Origin: Yuukianura sp. NJ FZ-2021 | Taxonomy: Eukaryota | Direction: 5' to 3' | NCBI GenBank assembly: GCA_046563655.1 | Contig: CM102286.1 | Coordinates: 1,674,001-1,738,000 of the forward strand | DNA length: 64,000 nt | Shown here: positions 17,667 to 44,464 of the stretch, piece after piece | How the letters are laid out: each line of letters starts with the position of its first letter | How positions within the stretch are numbered: position 1 is the stretch's first letter | Program-made: the position numbers and the translations under genes | The notes under the pieces: generated by a model | What the model was told of the DNA's origin: nothing | The model's input: the letters and a program-made list of their open reading frames with translations, nothing else | Database searches by the model: none

Positions 17667-20372
<2,706 letters not shown>

Positions 20373-22009
20373 TTTGCATAACCTTTGACCTCAAACACTT
20401 TTTACACTGCGCACAACTCTAATTTTTGATCACCTAAACTCTCATTTTAAAACGAAACTTGAACGTTTCTGTCAAAAACTTGAGTATTTGTAATCTCGGC
20501 TTTTATATTTTACGAACTGTTGAAAATTAATCTTTCTCTAGGAAAAGCTAAAGTCGACTTAAAGTTTTTGAGGAAATTCTTGCAAAAATTCTACTAATCT
20601 ATCCTGGACCAGTTTTTCTCAATGCGAATTCCAGGTAAGTAAAAAAAACTATTACATAACAGAAGATTAGGCTCAAATAAAGTCAGCTTGGCTTGCAAAA
20701 TTGTGTGCAATTTTGGTGCTCTTATGGAAGGTGTTCAAGATTTTTGGAACAAAAAACTTCCTTTAACTGCTAAACGTTAACCACCTTACTATTTCCTTGA
20801 CTTTGTGAAAACTACTTTTAGGATTAGTAAAAACTGCTAATGCTGATGCTGCCTTATAAGGTGTGAGGTACACAAATCGTCTGAAATTTTTTATTAGCAT
20901 TAAGTCATTAAGTGTAAATCCCAAAAGCTACAGCAAAAGACATAAAAATTTGTATGAATAAATTTACGATTGTTGTGTCCGTCGTGCTTCGGACAATGTC
21001 AAATCAAGCAAAGGCATTTAATTGTGCCAAAGGTCACAAATTTCTGTGGTCCCTTCGATTAGTGTTCAATTAGGTTAGGATTGTCTGTGCACAATTGCAG
21101 CTTCCCCTACTGGTTATGCTAAAGTTGTCCTTGGTCCAATGTCGAACTCTAACAAGGATTTAAAGCAGTTGATCCTGAACTAACTTGATGCAAAAGCAAC
21201 TTCAAGGTCAACAATACCTCGTGAACGGATGCATTTTAGCAATGACTAACTTCATATATGAATAGGAATATATAAAATATAATACAAATATATATAAACA
21301 TAAATATGATATTTGTATGGAACAAGGTTAGAAGTAAAGGTTTTTGCGCCACCATCCAGTTTTCATACTTTTAAAAGAACCGCGATACACTAGTACCGCG
21401 TACCACCATTTTTGAAAACATGAAATGCTAAAATTTGAAAATCATTTCCTTCAGGCACTCAACACCCTAGCCACAACTTTTTCAAAAAATCAAATTTTCG
21501 ATTTGAAACTGCTTGTGCTGTTTTGAAAAAAAAAACGAAGCCAAAAGGAGACAACTTCGTCAAAATTTTGTGTCTTTAAAAAAATGTTGTCTATTTTCGA
21601 AGCTTTTGTGTGTAGCGTTTTCGTTCTATTTTTGTAGGCTTCCTTTGTCTAGTGGGCCCTTAGCTTAGGTTTTAGGCCTTAGCTTTTAGTATGGCCTGAA
21701 GCCTTAACAATGTTTTTGTATTTGAACAGCCTTCGAAGGGACAAAGGGACCCTTGGAACAAGGAAAAATACAAAAAAAATCAAACTCATCGTCAGTATAG
21801 TACAAACAAAGAAACTCCAATTTTGTTTTGCTTTGTTCGGTTCTAGAAACATAGGAGAGAACTTGCACTGGGCTTATCAGTCTCAAACGGAAATCGTCTC
21901 TTACTAATTCTGTTAGTTAAGGATCAGCAGGAGCCGTCTTAATTTACAATTGCTTTCTACTAACAAAGTAATCACTGATTAACTTTACTTTAACTTTGTG
22001 TTGGACAAG

Positions 22010-32302: not shown

Positions 32303-35300
32303 TCATATCAACCTTGAAGCAGAATCTAGGTTTAACGATTTCCAAAATTCAACACGTTCCATAAACGGTGGATTCGTCATGCGTGGAACGTCGTTAACCT
32401 CAAGTACTCGAAGACCTTCAGATGGATTGCTCAGCTCCCACTGAATATTTCCAAACGTTCCTGGATAACTGAATTTGAAATACAAAAAAGTCAAAAATTT
32501 TCTCATCATGATTTGTTATTTGCTTTTGAAATTTACCCATGTTTTGCAAAATTCGCCCAGAGTTTGATAATGGCTGCTGAAAATGGAAAATCTTGAGTTC
32601 CTGGAGCAATCTCTCTTGTGATGAGCGGAATGTTGTAAAAGATTGGCAACTCATCTGCATGGCACACGCCTGTATCAATTGAATTGTTTTTTGTAATACA
32701 AAAGTATAACAAAATTTCCAAAATATGAATTTTTCCACAATATGGAAGGCGCTGCTTTACCATAATGTTTTTGTTCGCCCAGGCGGAAAACGTTTGTTAG
32801 AAACCATTCACGCGTATTTGACAAAAACGCGAAAATTGTGTCCAGAGACGCTGGAAGCGCTCCAGTCATGGAAAACAGAAGATTGGCAAATCCAAATTTT
32901 CCTTTGTAATTGTAGTAGTATGGGTAAACTGGCGCCCATTTCGATTGTAGTCGTACAGCTTCAGTGAATCCTGAAAAATTCGTCACCAACACAATGATTT
33001 TCAAAATTTTGAAAACCTTTCAAATTTTAGAAGTACCTTCAAAAAATTCCCGGTCTGAGAACATGTCCACCGTTTCGTCCAACGTGCTCATGCCAATTTT
33101 GTTACTGTCAAAGTAAAATTTTCGAATTTTCGCGGAAATGACTGTATGATTTGGTTCTTGGTCGTAGTAGAAAACGAGCGGTGCAATTTTGTTCCATTGC
33201 TCATTGACCATTTTCCGTTGTGTTTTGTTTTTAATGGCGTCTAAAATTTCAAATTTTAATTCAACACTCGCACAATTGAAATTTTATGCTTTTTTTCAAA
33301 ATTTTGAACTTACTGGCAGCATAGATGAGTCCCTCTTCCGAATTGACTCCAGCGATCCATGGCACTGGATTTGCAATTTCGCCTTTTTCCAAAAGCCTTC
33401 GGGGATGTTCGGTCAAAAACGATTTCGAGTCGGTCACAATTTCAACTGTTGGAGTAAACAGGGCTAGACGATCTCCCACAAACTCTTTCTAAAATTCAAA
33501 ATTTCTAAAATTCATCAATTTTGAAAATTCAAAATTTGAAAAACCAACATTTTCTAAACCTACAGTATAGTCAACATGCGTTCGGACGATGCTTCTAGCA
33601 CTTCTCGTTTTCAGACATTCGACCATTTCTCGTGTCGTATCAATCGGACAGCTCAGTTTTTCTGCTAAACGCTGCGCTTGTTCTTTCGGTTTGTCTGAAA
33701 TTGCCCATGGATTTAGTGCTGAACCACTTTGGGAAATGGCGCGATGAAATAAACCTAAAAACATGTAACAATTTCAAAATTTCAATAAAAAAATTAGAAA
33801 AATTGCCGTAATTTCTACAATTAAACTTGCCTTTTGACAGAGGCGACAGTGTATGCATGTGGACTGAAGCAGCACCAGCACCTAAAGTAAAGTCAACATT
33901 TCTTAAAAAGTTCAAGTTAAATTTCACTTTATGATCAACGGTCAACGTAAATATCAACCGAAGGTCAAAGGTCAACTTACTTTCTCCCATGAGTGTCACT
34001 CTAGTGTTGTCTCCTCCGAAGTATCCAATGTTATCCTGAATCCATCTCAAGGCCATGCTTTGGTCCTTGAGTCCCATGTTCCCACGGATAAGCCCATCAC
34101 CAGTATTCAAAAATCCTGCAATTGAAACAATAACAAATTCAAACAAGTCAAAGCACGCTCCTGTAATTACTCTATGTAATTCATGTAATTATAAAAGTAA
34201 TTCGTGTAATTTTGTCAAAAACTAGCGTGCCGTCTATTAATTTCAGGTATTTCCCAAACCTACCAAAAGAGGCGAGACGATAATTGAGTGTGACTAGAAC
34301 AACGTCTTCTGACATGAAGTATTTTGGGCGGTAAAAGTTGGACAGACCAGCCATGAAGGCTCCACCTACAAAGTACAAAATAATAATATTAATATAACAT
34401 ATTTCTATACATATAATAATATTTTGCGTAGAAGATGATGCCAGGTTAAGTAGTTTGCATTTTGAAAAATATACTATTGACTTGGAGTTAGTCGATGGTT
34501 TGAGTAATTACATACTGAGAAATATTCATATGTAATTATTTAAAAAAAACAACAATCAAAAAAATAAATTTACCATGAATAAATACCATCACTGGTTTGA
34601 GATTGGCCTGAGAGATTTGATCTTCTTCTAAAACCTACATTTGAAAAAAGTAAAAAATATATTCGTTTTCAAGTTAAGTTGGTTTCAGGAAAAGTTTCTT
34701 TTTTTCAAAAAAAAATTCTCACACTACTTTATAATTTGATTTTTTTGTTGCACATAATAAATTAAAGTAGTCTTGAATTACAAGCGCTGTTTTAGGCACT
34801 GTCCTGTTTTATTTTTGTTTACTATACGTGAGAAGCTCATTTGTGGAAAGAAGAGGCAGTAATTTTTTTCTTTCTTTTTTTTTGGAAAAAAGAAAATTTT
34901 GAGTGAAACGGTGGGAATTTTCGGAAAATTGAAATTGATTATGACAGAATAATGTCGGTTTTTATATAATTGTGGTATAATTGTGTACGTGGCAGAGTAA
35001 AATTTATTGCTGGAATATAAAAAAGGAATCACGGAACGTGTACTTAATTGGAATTTTGAGGAAAGTTTTTGTGTGAAGGCGTTTGCTTCCTGATCCTGAG
35101 TATTTTTTTTTGCTTATTCGTGCAAAACCCAACTCTACATGTAAATCGACATATCATTTTCTTCCTTTATATTCTTGTTTACTAAACTAAAGTAAACTTT
35201 TTTTTGCGTGGTACCTGATGAGTAAAGACATTCAGGAAGAGACAATCTTCGTCTCCTTGAACAGTTCGCGAAAATCTTTCAAATTGCCAACATCTCGGGC

Positions 35301-36143
35301 CATAACGTAAAGCGTCACGGATTCCAAACCACGTTTCCGGTGGAACCGGTGGCTACAAAAGAAACAACCAAAAATTTCAATTTCGACCAACATTTTACAA
35401 CATAACCACAAAGTACGCCATAAATTTTCAAAATCACTCAAATTTTAGCGTACAATTTACAAAAGAACTCCAATTTCAACAAAGATTTTAGAAAATAATC
35501 CACAATTTCGAGCGAAAACGCTGAAAAAAAAATTAAAATTTCGTCCAAGGCTGAAGAATTCTTAAAAGCTTTGGGCAAAACTTGAAAAATTACTAAAACT
35601 TTTTTCCAAAAATGACAGCTTTCCATTTTGGCAAAATGAAAAACAAAGCGGCACTTACCATAAACACAAAAATTGCACCAGAATTACTAAAAATTGAAAT
35701 TAGTATTTGGAAATGTAAAGAAGAAAAAATGAAATTCTCAAACAATGAAAATGTTTGAAACTGCATCGAGGTCACCTTAAAATCACTTTGACGTTACAAA
35801 TTATTTGGAAATTACTTTGAAATAAGAACGAAATAGTTCGTGATGGTTGGGTAATTTGAGTAATTTGTAAGAGACAAAAACAAGAGAAGTAATTGACACT
35901 GACCTCAAAACGTAGGTCTCCAACAGGAGGAGTGGCATAAGGAACACCCAGAAACTCGTAGAAAATTCGTCCATTTCGCGCCGTACTTTTTGAACCACGA
36001 AGTTGTCCATAATTTGTGTCCGCAACGACAGTTGACCCCGGCAGTTCCGCAATGTGATTAATCGTATTGTAGAGACCAAGGACTGAACCAAGCAGCAGCG
36101 CCACTGGCTGCACCCTTCTTGATCTACTTAGTCTTCGTGCCAT
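32303..36143 (-). CDS. Type-B carboxylesterase, paralog 2
   Basis: [39 protein letters not shown], spliced GESAG, NSEEG and CHADEL. Confidence 0.93.
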
Positions 36144-36939
36144 AGTTCAACTAAATTTTGAAAAAGTCACCGCCAAAATTCAAAAACTTTTCCAATTGGA
36201 CAAATTTAGGACGTCCTTGCAGTCATCCTTGACTACAAAAAGTATCACCAAGAAACAGAAAATTTAGCTAAACTGAGAGAGTAGGTTAACCTCAACTCCT
36301 CATCAACTAAAAAACCTAACTGTTTACTCACTCAAGTTCTTAACGTGACTACACCTTTGCAAATTTTTGCAAACTTTGCAAAAACGAGCAGCCTGATTTG
36401 ATTGTTGCGCGAATTTTTTTGCAAAGTCGAAAGTGGTCGTGCAGGTACAATCAAGATAGTCTTTGGGCATAGTTCCTAAGAACAACTTTTGTTGTGTGAA
36501 AAAATACAACGAGGGGGCTCGTAATCCGTAAAATTTTGCATGAATTTTTATACACTTAAGTAAAAACGTAAATAAATGACGTGTCAAAGGTATTTCTGAG
36601 AAGATGCATATAAATGGAAGTAATTTCTCAATCTGCACACAATTTGGATGTGAATAACCTTGTAAAGATTAACGTAAAAAGTACTAAACTAACAAACTGG
36701 TGTGGAAATTCAGTAAAATTTTCAGTAGTTTCAACACTCTTCATTACTGTCCAACTGACAAACGTACGCATGCGCAAAGTCACGAAATCAAAACGCCAAA
36801 TCAATTGCGTTTAAGAATTTATTAAAAACAAAAGACTTAAGTAATGCGTAGTGACTTCCGACCTTGCATTACAAAATTGTCACGCTAAATTTCGAAACGC
36901 TCAACAAAACATAACTTTTGAAATTTTGTTTTTGAAAAA

Positions 36940-37571
36940 CTAAAATTGTGAAATGTCGTTAGTCTCGTGGTAGTCTTCATTAAAGTAGCACATGCACGAA
37001 CAAATTGAACCATTTGTATTATTTTCTGCAGTTTCAACATTTCCCGCCAAATTTTTGGTCAAAACTGGACAAATCGTTCCAATGTAAGTAAAAACGTCGG
37101 GGTTTGGATTCTTTGTTTCGCAGTACAAATTGCATTCCGAATCAGGATCTCTCACACAATTCTCTCTCGGAACCTGATTCAAAAATCAAAATTTTAAATC
37201 TCCATTTTTTTTTTTTGGAATTTTCACTCACATCTCTGCAATCACAGATGCAATTGCCGCTGCTACTTTCGCAAAATGTCGCCGAGTACGACATGTTCAA
37301 CCTGTCTTCGTTGCAAGCACGTTGACAAATATTTTTGTCCGCACTGAGATTGCAATTCACAAGATCATCGGCCCCAGTCAACATAGATGCAATCTACAAA
37401 CATCCAAAAAGTGAAGCCCAAATTAACAAAAAACGAAATTGCAGAATTTGGAGAAAAAAAGTTTCTGTTAAAAAAAACTGACTTTATTTGGTTTTCTTTC
37501 TAGAAAGTTCTAGAAATGTTTACCTTCAACAGAACAGCAAGGACAGCAATTGCAGCAACCGTGAAATTCAT
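36940..37571 (-). CDS. Secreted 147-aa Cys-rich protein with two CS-alpha/beta-like repeats, 3 exons
   Basis: Signal MNFTVAAIAVLAVLLK; exons 37393-37232 and 37173-36940 each carry C..CxxxC...C...CxCxC. Confidence 0.75.
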
Positions 37572-37977
37572 GCTGCTTCAGTGTAATTTTTTTTTGCGTA
37601 AACTAAACTTTTTGCGTAAAATAAACTGTAAACAGATCTTTTGTGCTATGCTGCGTAACTATTGCAATGTACTATTGAGGTTATGTTTTGAATCCACAAG
37701 TTTCCAAGTGCTAATTGTAAACAACTTTCACAACAACACAAGTTGAACTGAAATGAAGCTTTAAGTGCAAATGTGAATGTGAAGATTACCAAAAATAGTA
37801 AACAGAATCGTCAAAAAAGGTTTTCAGAAACAGACGGTAGGATTCAAATTGAATTTGGAGCGTAAATTTAGCAGATTAGACACTACAAGAAATGTCAAGA
37901 AGAACATAAAAATTTTGGAAATAGGGTTTGCACATAAGTTTTTTAAATTTTAATTTTGTGTATACGTTACTTTTTCA

Positions 37978-38948
37978 TCAACCAAATAGGTTTCCACTAG
38001 CTATCTCAGCTATTTTCTTGCGTGACTTTTCTCTTGCCGCATCTGATTCAGCTTTTTCATGTCCACTGTTTTCTAGTTTGTATTTTTTGGAAGGTTGTTT
38101 GACATTTGCCCCTTTTTCAACAACAGTCAGTGTACCCCACATCCCTCCAGCACAATTAGTACTTGTCTTTCCTGTTGTTTCACAGTGGTACGTCACATTC
38201 TCCTGTAAAAGTATCAAAAAACAGCACATTTGACTTTCGGCCAAACTTGACTTTTTCGGCCCAATTTGAGATTTTCGGCCTAATCTGACCTTTTCGACCC
38301 AATTTGACATTTTCGGCCAAACGTAACCTTTTCGGTACAATTTGACTTTTTTGGCCTAATTTGACCTTTTCTGTACAATCTGACCTTTTCGGCCGAATTT
38401 GACCTTTGAATTTAAAAGTTTCTTACGCACGACTTTTGTAAATGTCTGTTTCCACACATATCCAGATTCCTGATAGCCCGAATGGAAAATGTCCAATTTC
38501 TTTTTTTCTTCTTCATCCACCCATTTGCATTTCTCTGCCAGGCTGACTGATTTGGTCACCGTGTGAGGCACTATGCTATTGGACATTGCAGCAAGTTCAG
38601 TATCTTGAAATGCCCCTGGAGGTCAAAGGTCAAAGCTACTTGAGTAATATGTGGCAAAATAAGATTTAAAATGGCCTTGATTCACATTTGAAGACGACTG
38701 TGTCACCAACGTTGATTTCTTGATGTTTAGGGTCATATGTCAGTCCAGGTCCAACTATCACTACTACCTCATCTCCTTGTACTGTCCCTGTGTATAAATA
38801 TATTTCGTAAACTAATTAGTATTGACAATTTATGACTTTATTTATTACTTAATTAAATATGTAGATCAATAAAGTAGTTAGAGAACTCACACAAGTTGAT
38901 TCCAGTCATCAAGGTGATCCATACCAAAGAAAATGTGCTTGACAGCAT
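37978..38948 (-). CDS. Secreted single-domain cupredoxin (plastocyanin-like), copy A, 4 exons
   Basis: Signal peptide; VIVGPGLTYDPKHQEINVGDTVVFKW, PHTVT, FHSG and YHCETTGKTSTNCAGGMWGTLTV. Confidence 0.82.
38229..38408. repeat. About 20-bp intronic minisatellite (TTTGACCTTTTCGGCCCAA-like)
   Basis: About 9 degenerate tandem copies in intron 3 of cupredoxin A. Confidence 0.85.
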
Positions 38949-39529
38949 AGCTCAAGAAATTCAGACAACCGCAAGCGAAAAAGCTGTGCAAGTAAAAAAA
39001 CGTAAGTTTTAAAACCTTGTTTTCGGAAATAAAAAGGCGGCAATTGTTTTCGCTTTTGTTTTGAACCAATAAGAATTGTTCCTTTTATTTCAATGTTGAA
39101 ACGGTGCCATTGAAATTTTTGTGAGTTTTGATTTTACAGTTGAATAGAACTCATAAGGTTTTTGCGATTGAATTTTTATTCAATTTCGAATCCATTTTTG
39201 AAAAATGTTTTATTAAACGTAGAAATAAAAAACAAATAAGTTAAAATTATACTCGACGATTTTATACTGTTTTGTTCAAAAACTAGTGTGACATTGGAAT
39301 GAATTCCGGAACCGAATTAATTTCCGAATTAAAATTTATATTGGTCCACGTAAAATTCTAGCGTCAATGAACTTTTCACAAACAGACGGTATGATTCGAA
39401 ATCCAATTGGAGCATAAGGCTATTTATTGCGCAGATTAGACACTACAGGAAAGGTCTTGAAAAGGTTCCAAATTGTAAAGATAATTTTTGTACAAGTTTT
39501 TGAAATTATGAATTTGTGTATGCGTTTGT

Positions 39530-40542
39530 TCAAAAATCAAAGTCTCCACCAAGTGCTGCAGTTGAGTGCTTGCGTCCTACCGTTCCTGCTTTTTCTGCCT
39601 GAGCATTTGTGGGTCCATCGGCTTCCATTTTGTATTTTCTCGAAGGTTTTTTGACATCTGCCCCTTCTGCAACTACATTCACTGTACCCCACATCCCTCC
39701 TTGACAATTTGTACATGTTATCCCAGTTGTTTCACAGTGGTACGTCACATTCTCCTGTAAAAGTATCAAAAACAACACTTTCAACTTTTTCGGCCTAATT
39801 TGACCTTCTCAATCCAATTTGACCTTTTCGATCCAATTTGACCTTTTCGATCCAATTTGATCTTTTTGGTACAATTTGACCTTTTCGATCCAATTTGACC
39901 TTTTCGATCCAATTTGATCTTTTTGGTACAATTTGACCTTTTTGGTACAATTTGACCCTTTCGGCCCAATTTGAACTTTCCGTACAATTCGAACCTTTTG
40001 GCCCAATTTGCCCTGTGAATTTAAAAATTTACTACGTACCACTTTTGTAAATTTCTGTTTGAAAACATCTCCGGACTCCTTGTACCCTGAATTAAACAAT
40101 TTCCGTTTCTTTTTTTCTTCTTCATCCACATATTTGCATTTCTCTTCGAAACTGACGGATCTGGTCACAGTGTGAGGCACTTTGCCATTCGACATTGTGA
40201 CCGACGGATCAGGACGTCCAGAATCTGGATATGCCCCTGGAGGTCAAAGGTCAAAGTCAGTTGAGCAATTTTTGGCAAAATAAGGTTACAGAATGGCCTT
40301 GATTTACATTTGAAGACAAGCGTGTCACCGACGTTGATTTCTTGATGTTTGGGGTCAAATGTCAGTCCAGGACCAACTATCACTATGACTTCATCCCCTT
40401 GTACTGTCCCTATAAATGTATAAATAAATTTTGTTATGCTAATTATTTAATTAATTGAATATATAAAGTAATTGAAAAACTCACAAAAGTTGGTTTCGCT
40501 CATCAAAGTGATCCATACCAAGCAAAATATTTTGGACAACAT
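39530..40542 (-). CDS. Secreted single-domain cupredoxin (plastocyanin-like), copy B, 4 exons
   Basis: MLSKIFCLVWITLMSETNFWTVQG; VIVGPGLTFDPKHQEINVGDTLVFKW, PHTVT, FNSG and YHCETTGITCTNCQGGMWGTVNV; intron positions are the same as in copy A. Confidence 0.82.
39780..40012. repeat. About 20-bp intronic minisatellite (AATTTGACCTTTTCGATCC-like)
   Basis: About 12 tandem copies in intron 3 of cupredoxin B; the source of the spurious repetitive ORFs there. Confidence 0.88.
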
Positions 40543-40906
40543 GATTCCAGACAACTCCGCGCCACCGTAAGTGGAAAAACTGTGCAAGATTCGAGTAAAA
40601 AACGTAAGTTATAAAACCTAACTTTTAATTTTCTAGTTGTCCTCGGAAATTAAAAAGCGGCACTTTTACGCTTTCGGTTTAAAACAATGGAAATTTTATA
40701 TTTTTTTGTTAATGTTCAAAATTTGACATTGAAATTTTTATGAGTTTCAAATTTTCGGTGACATGAGTAAAAGTTATCAAGCTTTGCGGCTGAATCTAAC
40801 TTTTATTTAATTTCAAATCAATTTTTTGCAAATCGCATTAATGTGAGAGTGAGCAGGAAAATAAGTTAACATATGATAAATCGTAAACTTGAATTTTGTG
40901 TTTTGT

Positions 40907-43533
<2,627 letters not shown>

Positions 43534-44464
43534 ACTTATTCTGGAACTTTTTGTACTGAATCTGTACAGTAAAGTTGCAAAAACACTAGTGTTTTTTAGA
43601 TTATTTTTTAAAGTTGTGCACAGGAGGGAGTAATAGTTTGTGTCCGTGGGAGAAAATTTAACAAACTTCTGCTACTTTTACCATAAAAATAAAATAAAAT
43701 TTCACATCAACCTTTGTGATGTTATGTTTTGTATGTTGAATGTTATTTAGTTCGTTCTTAAAGTTGTGTATAGTCAGTCTACCATTTGATTCCAAGGTTA
43801 ATGTATAAAAAAAATAACCGGTTTCTTTTGTCTATCTTTTAGTGTTTAGTCTCCAATGAAGCATTGTAGATCGCATACAAACAAAAAAAGTTAATATACT
43901 GAAGCCTTTATACAATATAAGTAGGAAGCGCTAGCAGCGGTGTAGTGCTAATTTTGAAAAAAATTAACAAGCGATAATTATTTGTGTAAATTTTTATAAA
44001 AACAGAAACATGATACTTTTGATGTTAAAATTCTTTACACTTACCCTAAAACGACCACAACACTCTATGCATCTTTTTACTTATGCAGAATGGGGTTCTG
44101 GTTGGAGTAAGGTTTAACGATTCTAATTTTAGCCACATCGCATGGGTGGCTACACCATGCGGCGACGTTTGTTGCCACTTTAGGTTAGCTATTTATTGAG
44201 TAAGAGCGGATACACATGTTGCCACCAAGTGCAGCCACCTATTGTAAGCACACAAACGTCCGGAGTGAGTGAGACTTGCGACTACAATGACGGCCGTTAA
44301 TCCTTACTTTGACCGACCGTTTAGTCAAAACTTTAGTTTTTGCTGAAATCAAAGCTACCGTGATTTTTTTCTCAGAAAAATGCGTACATTGCATTGTTTT
44401 GTGACTTTGACCTCGATTGGTAACAAAAACACTTGTAAACATACTAATTAACTTCTATCATGAG

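Follow-up and report, generated by a model that had tools for sequence, protein, structure and literature searches.

How does a springtail come to carry two genes for proteins of the blue-copper kind, and can those proteins still hold a metal when one of the classical copper ligands is gone? The question is raised by a stretch of 64,000 nucleotides from Yuukianura sp. NJ FZ-2021 (assembly GCA_046563655.1, contig CM102286.1, positions 1,674,001 to 1,738,000), hereafter the window, in which two tandem genes, copies A and B, encode small proteins with a cupredoxin-like domain. Monodomain cupredoxins are the textbook electron carriers of bacteria, archaea and plastids. They were lost early in bilaterian evolution, according to passages of PMC6485061. 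An earlier note, drawn up from the letters of the window alone, had described a pair of four-exon paralogs in tandem, and both gene models are intact at 37978–40542, duplicated and intron-bearing; the two ends of the span given there are the copy A stop codon (37978) and the copy B ATG (40542). The motifs quoted for the pair were all found, namely VGPGLT[YF]DPKHQEINVGDT.VFKW, PHTVT, EKCK, F.SGY and YHCETTG.T.TNC.GGMWGT.

The spliced proteins were scored against three home-built profiles, alongside 10,000 composition-matched shuffles and two reversed sequences. The first profile holds a mixed prokaryote set gathered with the motif Y-C-x-P-H-x3-G-M-x-G (120 loci, 121 distinct domains). Copies A and B score 21.6 and 19.7 bits on it, the best shuffle scores 13.2 bits, and the alignment covers positions 10–106 of 109. 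The second was built from Bacteroidota by phmmer with the protein P0002 as query in 401 genomes; 41 of them had matches, and 33 domains came from 30 loci. Here the scores are 28.2 bits for copy A and 26.8 for copy B, with a best shuffle of 13.9; the score is spread across the whole domain, and PHTVT is aligned to the first ligand His. The third profile represents a cysteine-pair ('HC') type found with the motif Y-x-C-x-P-H-C-x-x-G-M at 121 loci, 103 of whose 107 distinct domains were recognised by the first profile. Copy B scores 28.5 bits and copy A 27.1 on it, against 15.4 for the best shuffle. The shuffles (n = 10,000) never reach the scores of either copy on any of the three profiles, and the resemblance to cupredoxins is in this sense beyond chance.

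Comparison of profile with profile gave the same picture. With hhalign, the alignment of A and B matches the Bacteroidota set with 98.1% probability (E 6.8e-14), the HC-type set with 97.7% (E 2.4e-12, 34% identity over 89 columns) and the mixed prokaryote set with 97.5% (E 7.2e-12). The query P0002 (locus L093/L360), which comes from a Bacteroidales metagenome-assembled genome and has a signal peptide, a cupredoxin domain and a tail like that of type IX secretion system (T9SS) substrates, shares the whole pattern pointed out in the earlier note. It passes PF00127 with 44.9 bits (cut-off 21.2), and its nearest solved relatives are plastocyanins; by sequence, the closest structures are 1bxu, 1aac and 1bqk. 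By these comparisons, spliced A and B are homologous to monodomain cupredoxins of the plastocyanin/amicyanin kind (PF00127 type). In front of the domain, 9-residue Kyte-Doolittle means reach 1.8 within the first 14 residues. On this hydropathy the N-terminus is taken for a signal peptide and the protein is presumed to be secreted. Profile scores, hhalign and hydropathy thus agree with the single cupredoxin-like domain behind a hydrophobic N-terminus that the earlier note had proposed.

Single exons were also searched. Residues 1–34 of exon 4, looked up with a protein language model, bring up a list in which all named clusters carry copper families of cupredoxin type (PF00127, PF13473, SoxE, COX2), with scores of at most 0.84 that make them a lead only. 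Copy A exon 2 alone finds plastocyanin 6yez_P weakly in PDB (phmmer, E 0.53) and has weak unrelated Pfam matches below the cut-offs (Cpn10, E 0.068; Rrp40_N, E 0.19). An Ig-like repeat protein in PDB matches exon 2 with E 0.007, a value summed from weak repeats. Exon 3 found nothing relevant in PDB with phmmer, and its recognition in the protein atlas was low, with no usable match. The single-exon Pfam scans gave no match to PF02298 or PF00812. A complex prediction from the three exon-encoded parts of copy A returned a score of 0.16 and a mark of 0.34, which speaks neither for nor against the fold.

The ligand columns of the profiles locate the copper site. In both the hhalign and the hidden Markov model (HMM) alignments, His71 of copy A falls on the first ligand His, Cys122 on the ligand Cys and Met136 on the ligand Met, while Cys83 falls on the conserved Cys that follows the first ligand His. 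By hhalign, Asn131-Cys132 lies on the His-Cys of the bacterial 'PHC'. Three ligands, the first His together with Cys and Met, are therefore retained as the earlier note had read them, with Asn at the second His position beside a conserved Cys, and the extra Cys it saw in copy B is present as residue 133. The type-1 copper ligand set consists of His, Cys, His and Met; in both copies the second His is Asn, and neither has any His between the ligand Cys and the ligand Met, whatever the alignment. The loop reads C-x9-N-C-x-G-G-M, with six extra residues between Cys122 and Asn131, whereas that of the bacterial HC subtype reads C-x-P-H-C-x-x-G-M. In the Bacteroidota set, which was gathered regardless of motif, 33 of 33 domains have a His at most 6 residues after the ligand Cys. 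As aligned, both copies have a remodelled type-1 copper site, with Asn in place of the loop His and a longer loop.

Two further cysteines accompany this site. An upstream Cys is found in 102 of the 103 HC-type domains, as against 4 of 121 in the mixed prokaryote set and 1 of 33 in Bacteroidota. The springtail pairs Cys83/Cys132 (copy A) and Cys87/Cys136 (copy B) are aligned to the two Cys columns of the profile, and by this alignment both copies carry the features of the cysteine-pair subtype. Co-occurrence of the two non-ligand cysteines in HC-type domains suggests a disulfide, and the pair most likely forms one that staples the ligand loop to the body of the domain. Plant phytocyanins have a comparable disulfide, its second Cys coming right after the loop His. 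Mature copy A has 3 Cys in total, and would hold one disulfide and one free thiol, that of the ligand Cys. In copy B the fourth Cys (Cys133) makes a C-x-x-C with the loop Cys.

The closest known counterpart is the bacterial HC subtype, 'HTVTSG..C..G.F.SG ... Y.C.PHC..GM', whose domain order and length are those of the springtail proteins. Common to both are the start F.P..I.VGDTV.W, HTVT, the Cys after HTVT, F.SG, Y.C, the Cys after the second ligand position and GM.G..V, and both are exported, in the springtail case by a presumed leader. Besides the Asn and the longer loop, the springtail proteins have two insertions, one of about 11–15 residues ahead of the first His and a charged one of about 7 residues behind the first Cys. 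They differ from P0002 also in that a charged tail replaces the T9SS-like tail and that their genes have introns. The 103 HC-type domains come from Planctomycetota, Myxococcota, Bacteroidota, Verrucomicrobiota and others. Among the loci collected (L390-L510), the subtype is frequent in Planctomycetota (Phycisphaerales, Isosphaeraceae) and Myxococcota (Polyangiaceae), and several contigs, for example L426, have two copies or two domains. A separate observation concerns a Bacteroidota frame of at least 3350 residues (L368, G168:C1:1078291-1086543) with at least 11 tandem cupredoxin-like repeats, a poly-cupredoxin giant protein whose repeats have the loop YYCIPHG.PGG.GM.G and the middle HT.TSD...WNSG.

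Other cupredoxins are more distant. Plastocyanin, amicyanin and pseudoazurin (PF00127) have the same single Greek-key copper domain and the same order of His, Cys and Met, but their His-Cys-His-Met site is complete, their ligand loops are short and they lack the cysteine pair; in photosynthesis or periplasmic respiration they carry electrons. Phytocyanins and early nodulin-like proteins (PF02298) form a separate, plant-specific Pfam family, usually attached by a glycosylphosphatidylinositol anchor, and the early nodulin-like members have lost copper ligands. They have the HC disulfide presumed for the springtail proteins, which in turn keep the ligand Cys. Secreted fungal proteins with a cupredoxin domain are represented by FoCup of Fusarium oxysporum and MoPtep1 of Magnaporthe oryzae, the latter said to bind copper; by their description in passages of PMC12753967, they too are small, with a signal peptide and one cupredoxin domain, and act outside the producing cell, but they are effectors of plant pathogens.

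Divergence between the two copies indicates which parts are maintained. Proteins A and B are identical in 123 of 193 aligned columns (64%). By the Nei-Gojobori method, synonymous divergence (dS) is 0.48 and the ratio of non-synonymous to synonymous divergence (dN/dS) is 0.49 overall; by region it is 0.30 in the domain (copy A residues 21–145), 0.27 in the leader and 1.65 in the C-terminal tail. In the domain, 40 of 294 non-synonymous sites have changed, compared with 30 of 82 synonymous sites (Fisher p 9e-6); the excess of non-synonymous change in the tail is not significant (Fisher p 0.28). Purifying selection acts on the domain but not on the C-terminal tail. Between the copies, conservation is highest in the ligand loop, and exon 4 opens with 28 residues of which 22 are identical.

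Both genes are also covered by DNA contigs of two studies (5 runs, all DNA contigs). One of the two data sets is near-identical to the window, and the other is a few per cent different. In the second data set, one contig of 1970 nt connects intron 3 and exons 1–3 of copy B with the 3′ exon of the neighbouring carboxylesterase gene. The pair thus belongs to the animal chromosome in two assemblies. Copies A and B are intact, selected, chromosomal genes.

What, then, might these proteins do? Each gene would encode a small extracellular protein made up of a hydrophobic leader, one cupredoxin domain and a fast-evolving charged tail. Copper or another thiophilic metal would be bound by three residues, Cys, His and Met, with a loop residue or water to complete the site, or possibly, in copy B, the additional Cys of the C-x-x-C. 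Because the three ligands and the exon-4 loop have been kept despite a dS of about 0.5, the metal site is probably still in use, and from the conserved residues we judge continued metal binding to lie just on the probable side. The missing loop His is the solvent-exposed ligand, the usual electron port of cupredoxins. With this electron-exchange residue gone, the classical shuttle role is unlikely; the role outside the cell could be copper-binding, copper-buffering or redox at an altered potential, instead of that of a classical blue electron shuttle.

As to origin, the genes probably derive from an old transfer from a microbe to the springtail lineage, followed by intron gain and duplication. 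The pattern H.V..S..C...F.SG...YxC..HC..GM is widespread in bacteria (103 domains). In part because of these bacterial subtype features, transfer from a microbe is the more economical reading, and we consider it somewhat probable. The full reading is that a microbial blue-copper protein was adopted by a bilaterian, duplicated and given a rebuilt Cys/His/Met copper centre, or Cu(I)-handling site, that is free of the exposed His and has a longer loop stapled by a disulfide, with a C-x-x-C added in copy B. We put the probability of this full reading at about one in four.

Several points weigh against the main reading, that of metal-binding extracellular cupredoxins of probable microbial origin. 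A C-terminal motif served to choose the sequences of two of the three profiles, and in the earlier note the locus had been picked by that same motif. PF00127 gave no match at E up to 10 in the six single-exon translations scanned with Pfam. No relative was found in a word-indexed search of 5.8 billion protein clusters with single exons. GC content at third codon positions is 0.38 and 0.40 in the two copies and 0.40–0.46 in five neighbouring coding stretches, and since the pair is so close to its neighbours the composition bears no sign of transfer. In a FastTree tree of 255 sequences and 112 columns, with prokaryote comparators only, the bacterial HC subtype does not enclose the pair, whose branch, 2.1 substitutions per site long, lies next to atypical Bacteroidota (support 0.79 and 0.70), a placement that may be long-branch attraction. 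Finally, a type-1 site seldom survives when an equatorial His is lost, and the proteins may for that reason be metal-free.

Of the origin proposed in the earlier note, a horizontally acquired, intronised and duplicated gene with a non-canonical metal site, the duplication, the introns and the altered site stand. The horizontal acquisition is not shown: no donor or relative was found, the tree is ambiguous and the composition is like that of the neighbours. Nor is the 'fungal-type' label of that note shown, as bacteria abound in the same motif pattern, and the copper-handling or redox role and the secretion are presumed. The similarity searches used single-exon queries of 33–74 residues, with which relatives under about 45% identity would be missed. 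The protein-cluster searches returned 5 candidates for copy B exon 3, 14 for copy A exon 2, a query that was compared against longer proteins, and 2 for copy A exon 4; none scored. An exon-3 profile run with HMMER over 1.84 billion representatives gave a sole match (E 8e-4), which covers 15 residues of a 382-residue tandem-repeat protein and was rejected as spurious. Scans of metagenome and genome contigs for [H/N]-C-x-G-G-M-W-G were equally without yield, all 239 of 239 loci being chance hits (at most 16 bits, no Y.C upstream). Close relatives of roughly 45% identity or more are excluded from the collections searched; distant ones may exist.

The alternative that survives best concerns the metal. 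Copper may have been lost together with the loop His, leaving a cupredoxin-fold module with an extracellular binding or signalling role. Both copies have lost the second equatorial His and have a lengthened loop, and a role in surface binding would suit the tail, which is charged and fast-evolving (dN/dS 1.65). There is precedent for such a course in the early nodulin-like proteins of plants, which took up a binding or signalling role after copper loss. The ephrin receptor-binding domain offers another, as likewise an animal extracellular cupredoxin fold whose copper site is degenerate (PMC6485061). The comparison with ephrins, which is by description, also tells the other way, for lineages that gave up copper, ephrins among them, lost their ligands, in the ephrins wholly, and ephrins are membrane-attached and bind Eph receptors (PMC6485061). 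The springtail proteins, unlike ephrins, align with the profiles of copper-binding monodomain cupredoxins, and three ligands (first His, Cys and Met) have been retained in both paralogues at a dS of about 0.5. A metal-free copy A would moreover be left with an unpaired, functionless thiol in a secreted protein. We regard a metal-free module as unlikely, though a serious competitor to the rebuilt copper centre.

Transfer from a microbe has its own rival, in which the pair are fast-evolving survivors of an ancestral animal monodomain cupredoxin. This would agree with the failure of the exon-level searches to find a donor, with the host-like composition and with the introns, and monodomain cupredoxins do exist in non-bilaterian animals, by passages of PMC6485061. 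The same paper has them lost early in bilaterians, as mentioned at the outset; no animal relative surfaced either in the exon-level searches, which were weak, and the cysteine-pair subtype is found in bacteria. Vertical descent is quite improbable on this evidence, clearly more so than the loss of copper.

The exon joins were picked to keep the frame open, and the copies might therefore be silent, decaying or mis-modelled, without a product. This is very unlikely. The same four-exon structure, splice sites and open frames occur in both copies, and the domain has the low dN/dS of 0.30 (p 9e-6) given above. Between the two DNA data sets, none of the 12 indels listed, out of 54, falls in an exon. 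Among the 40 substitutions listed, out of 283, four are exonic, all in copy A exon 4: two are synonymous within the domain, one is K145Q at the last residue of the domain and one is A171T in the tail.

Least likely is that the motifs arose by chance in a different beta-sandwich, for instance an immunoglobulin V-like domain or a piece of a multicopper oxidase: exon 4 does match the end of camelid heavy-chain antibody variable domains (VHH), YYC...WGxGT.VTV, weakly (best E 0.13) and Pfam is blank on single exons, but the whole domain aligns with three cupredoxin profiles (hhalign E at most 1e-11), the exon-2 region, by reading of its sequence, is without the Cys that a V domain needs, and the multicopper-oxidase control fails. 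In that control, a 30-domain profile of multicopper-oxidase domain 3 (PF07731) gave no match for A and -1.8 bits for B, hhalign gave 0.2% (E 0.31), and the springtail loop reads HCE instead of HCH. The stretch that resembles VHH is residues 4–38 of exon 4 (37981-38202, minus strand; TYHC...GGMWGTLTVV), which recalls framework-3/CDR3/framework-4, YYC...WGQGTQVTV. We judge this likeness to be a convergent beta-strand pattern.

The features of the locus are collected in Table 1. The exon models are based on frame continuity and on the agreement of the paralogues, and all stop-to-stop frames of 37500-41000 were listed. The coding sequences are 570 nt in copy A and 582 nt in copy B. GT..AG borders are found at all six introns, and the phases (1, 1 and 0) agree between the copies. 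The intron-3 donors GTGCGT (copy A) and GTACGT (copy B) leave the frame open; the alternative donors GTAAGA and GTAGTA, 4 nt downstream, lose the frame in the splice model and were rejected.

Table 1. Features of the cupredoxin gene pair and its surroundings; positions are those of the window.
Feature	Position	Strand	Details
Copy A gene, ATG to stop	37978..38948	minus	4 exons, 189 residues; open frame and GT..AG introns
Copy A exon 1	38891..38948	minus	hydrophobic N-terminus, presumed signal peptide; ends in phase 1
Copy A exon 2	38686..38787	minus	first strands of the domain (VGPGLTYDPKHQEINVGDTVVFK); splice model
Copy A exon 3	38431..38615	minus	His71, Cys83, charged insertion, F.SGY; aligned to the HTVTSG..C..FdS block of the bacterial profile
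Copy A exon 4	37978..38202	minus	Cys122, Asn131/Cys132, Met136, fast-evolving tail, stop codon; splice model and alignment
Copy A His71	38563-38565	minus	
Copy A Cys83	38527-38529	minus	
Copy A Cys122	38182-38184	minus	
Copy A Asn131/Cys132	38152-38157	minus	
Copy A Met136	38140-38142	minus	
Copy B gene, ATG to stop	39530..40542	minus	4 exons, 193 residues
Copy B exons 1-4	40485-40542, 40308-40409, 40040-40236, 39530-39754	minus	splice model
Copy B key residues			His75, Cys87, Cys126, extra Cys133, Asn135/Cys136, Met140
Minisatellite filling copy A intron 3	38224..38407		19 bp; Tandem Repeats Finder: period 19, 9.1 copies; intron 228 nt
Minisatellite filling copy B intron 3	39797..40014		19 bp; Tandem Repeats Finder: period 19, 11.5 copies; intron 285 nt
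Two duplicated units	37821-39199 and 39373-40826	minus	about 250-280 nt upstream of each ATG included
Carboxylesterase genes (PF00135), at least three in tandem	18089-20390, 32418-36146, 41190-43671	minus	cupredoxin pair between the last two

The duplicated DNA units are 71% identical over 1497 columns (blastn, unit against unit), and tblastn with both proteins found no third copy in the 64-kb window. Intron 3 of each copy (38203-38430 and 39755-40039) has a length divisible by three and is in frame with exons 3 and 4, with a single stop codon. Introns 3 and 2 are 0.78 and 0.86 identical between the copies, and synonymous sites are lower, at about 0.64. Carboxylesterase genes of the same strand flank the gene pair on both sides. 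Elsewhere in the window are arrestin-domain exons, a DEAD_2 helicase gene and a C2H2 zinc-finger gene; of the families flanking the pair, COesterase, arrestin and DEAD_2 are animal gene families.

In the literature searched on cupredoxins or blue copper proteins in springtails, Collembola, and arthropod or metazoan horizontal transfer, no such gene was found. The word 'cupredoxin' is absent from the supplements searched of the Folsomia candida genome paper. In those of the Orchesella cincta genome paper, one file left out, it occurs in 6 rows, of which the 2 seen hold only multicopper oxidases. The present finding is best filed as new in its animal-encoded monodomain cupredoxin of the cysteine-pair subtype with a lengthened, His-less loop; monodomain cupredoxins themselves are known.

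A duplicated and conserved pair of such genes in a soil hexapod would extend the animal metalloprotein repertoire by one class. If the transfer is true, the pair would be a new case beside the gene transfers already documented in springtails. If the rebuilt copper centre is true, it would be of a kind undescribed among cupredoxins, and the pair would provide the first case of a working monodomain cupredoxin in a hexapod. As a natural experiment, the site variant presents a cupredoxin scaffold that goes without its electron-port ligand while the other three ligands are under purifying selection. Should copper be bound, the proteins may have a bearing on copper handling and tolerance in a model group of soil ecotoxicology.

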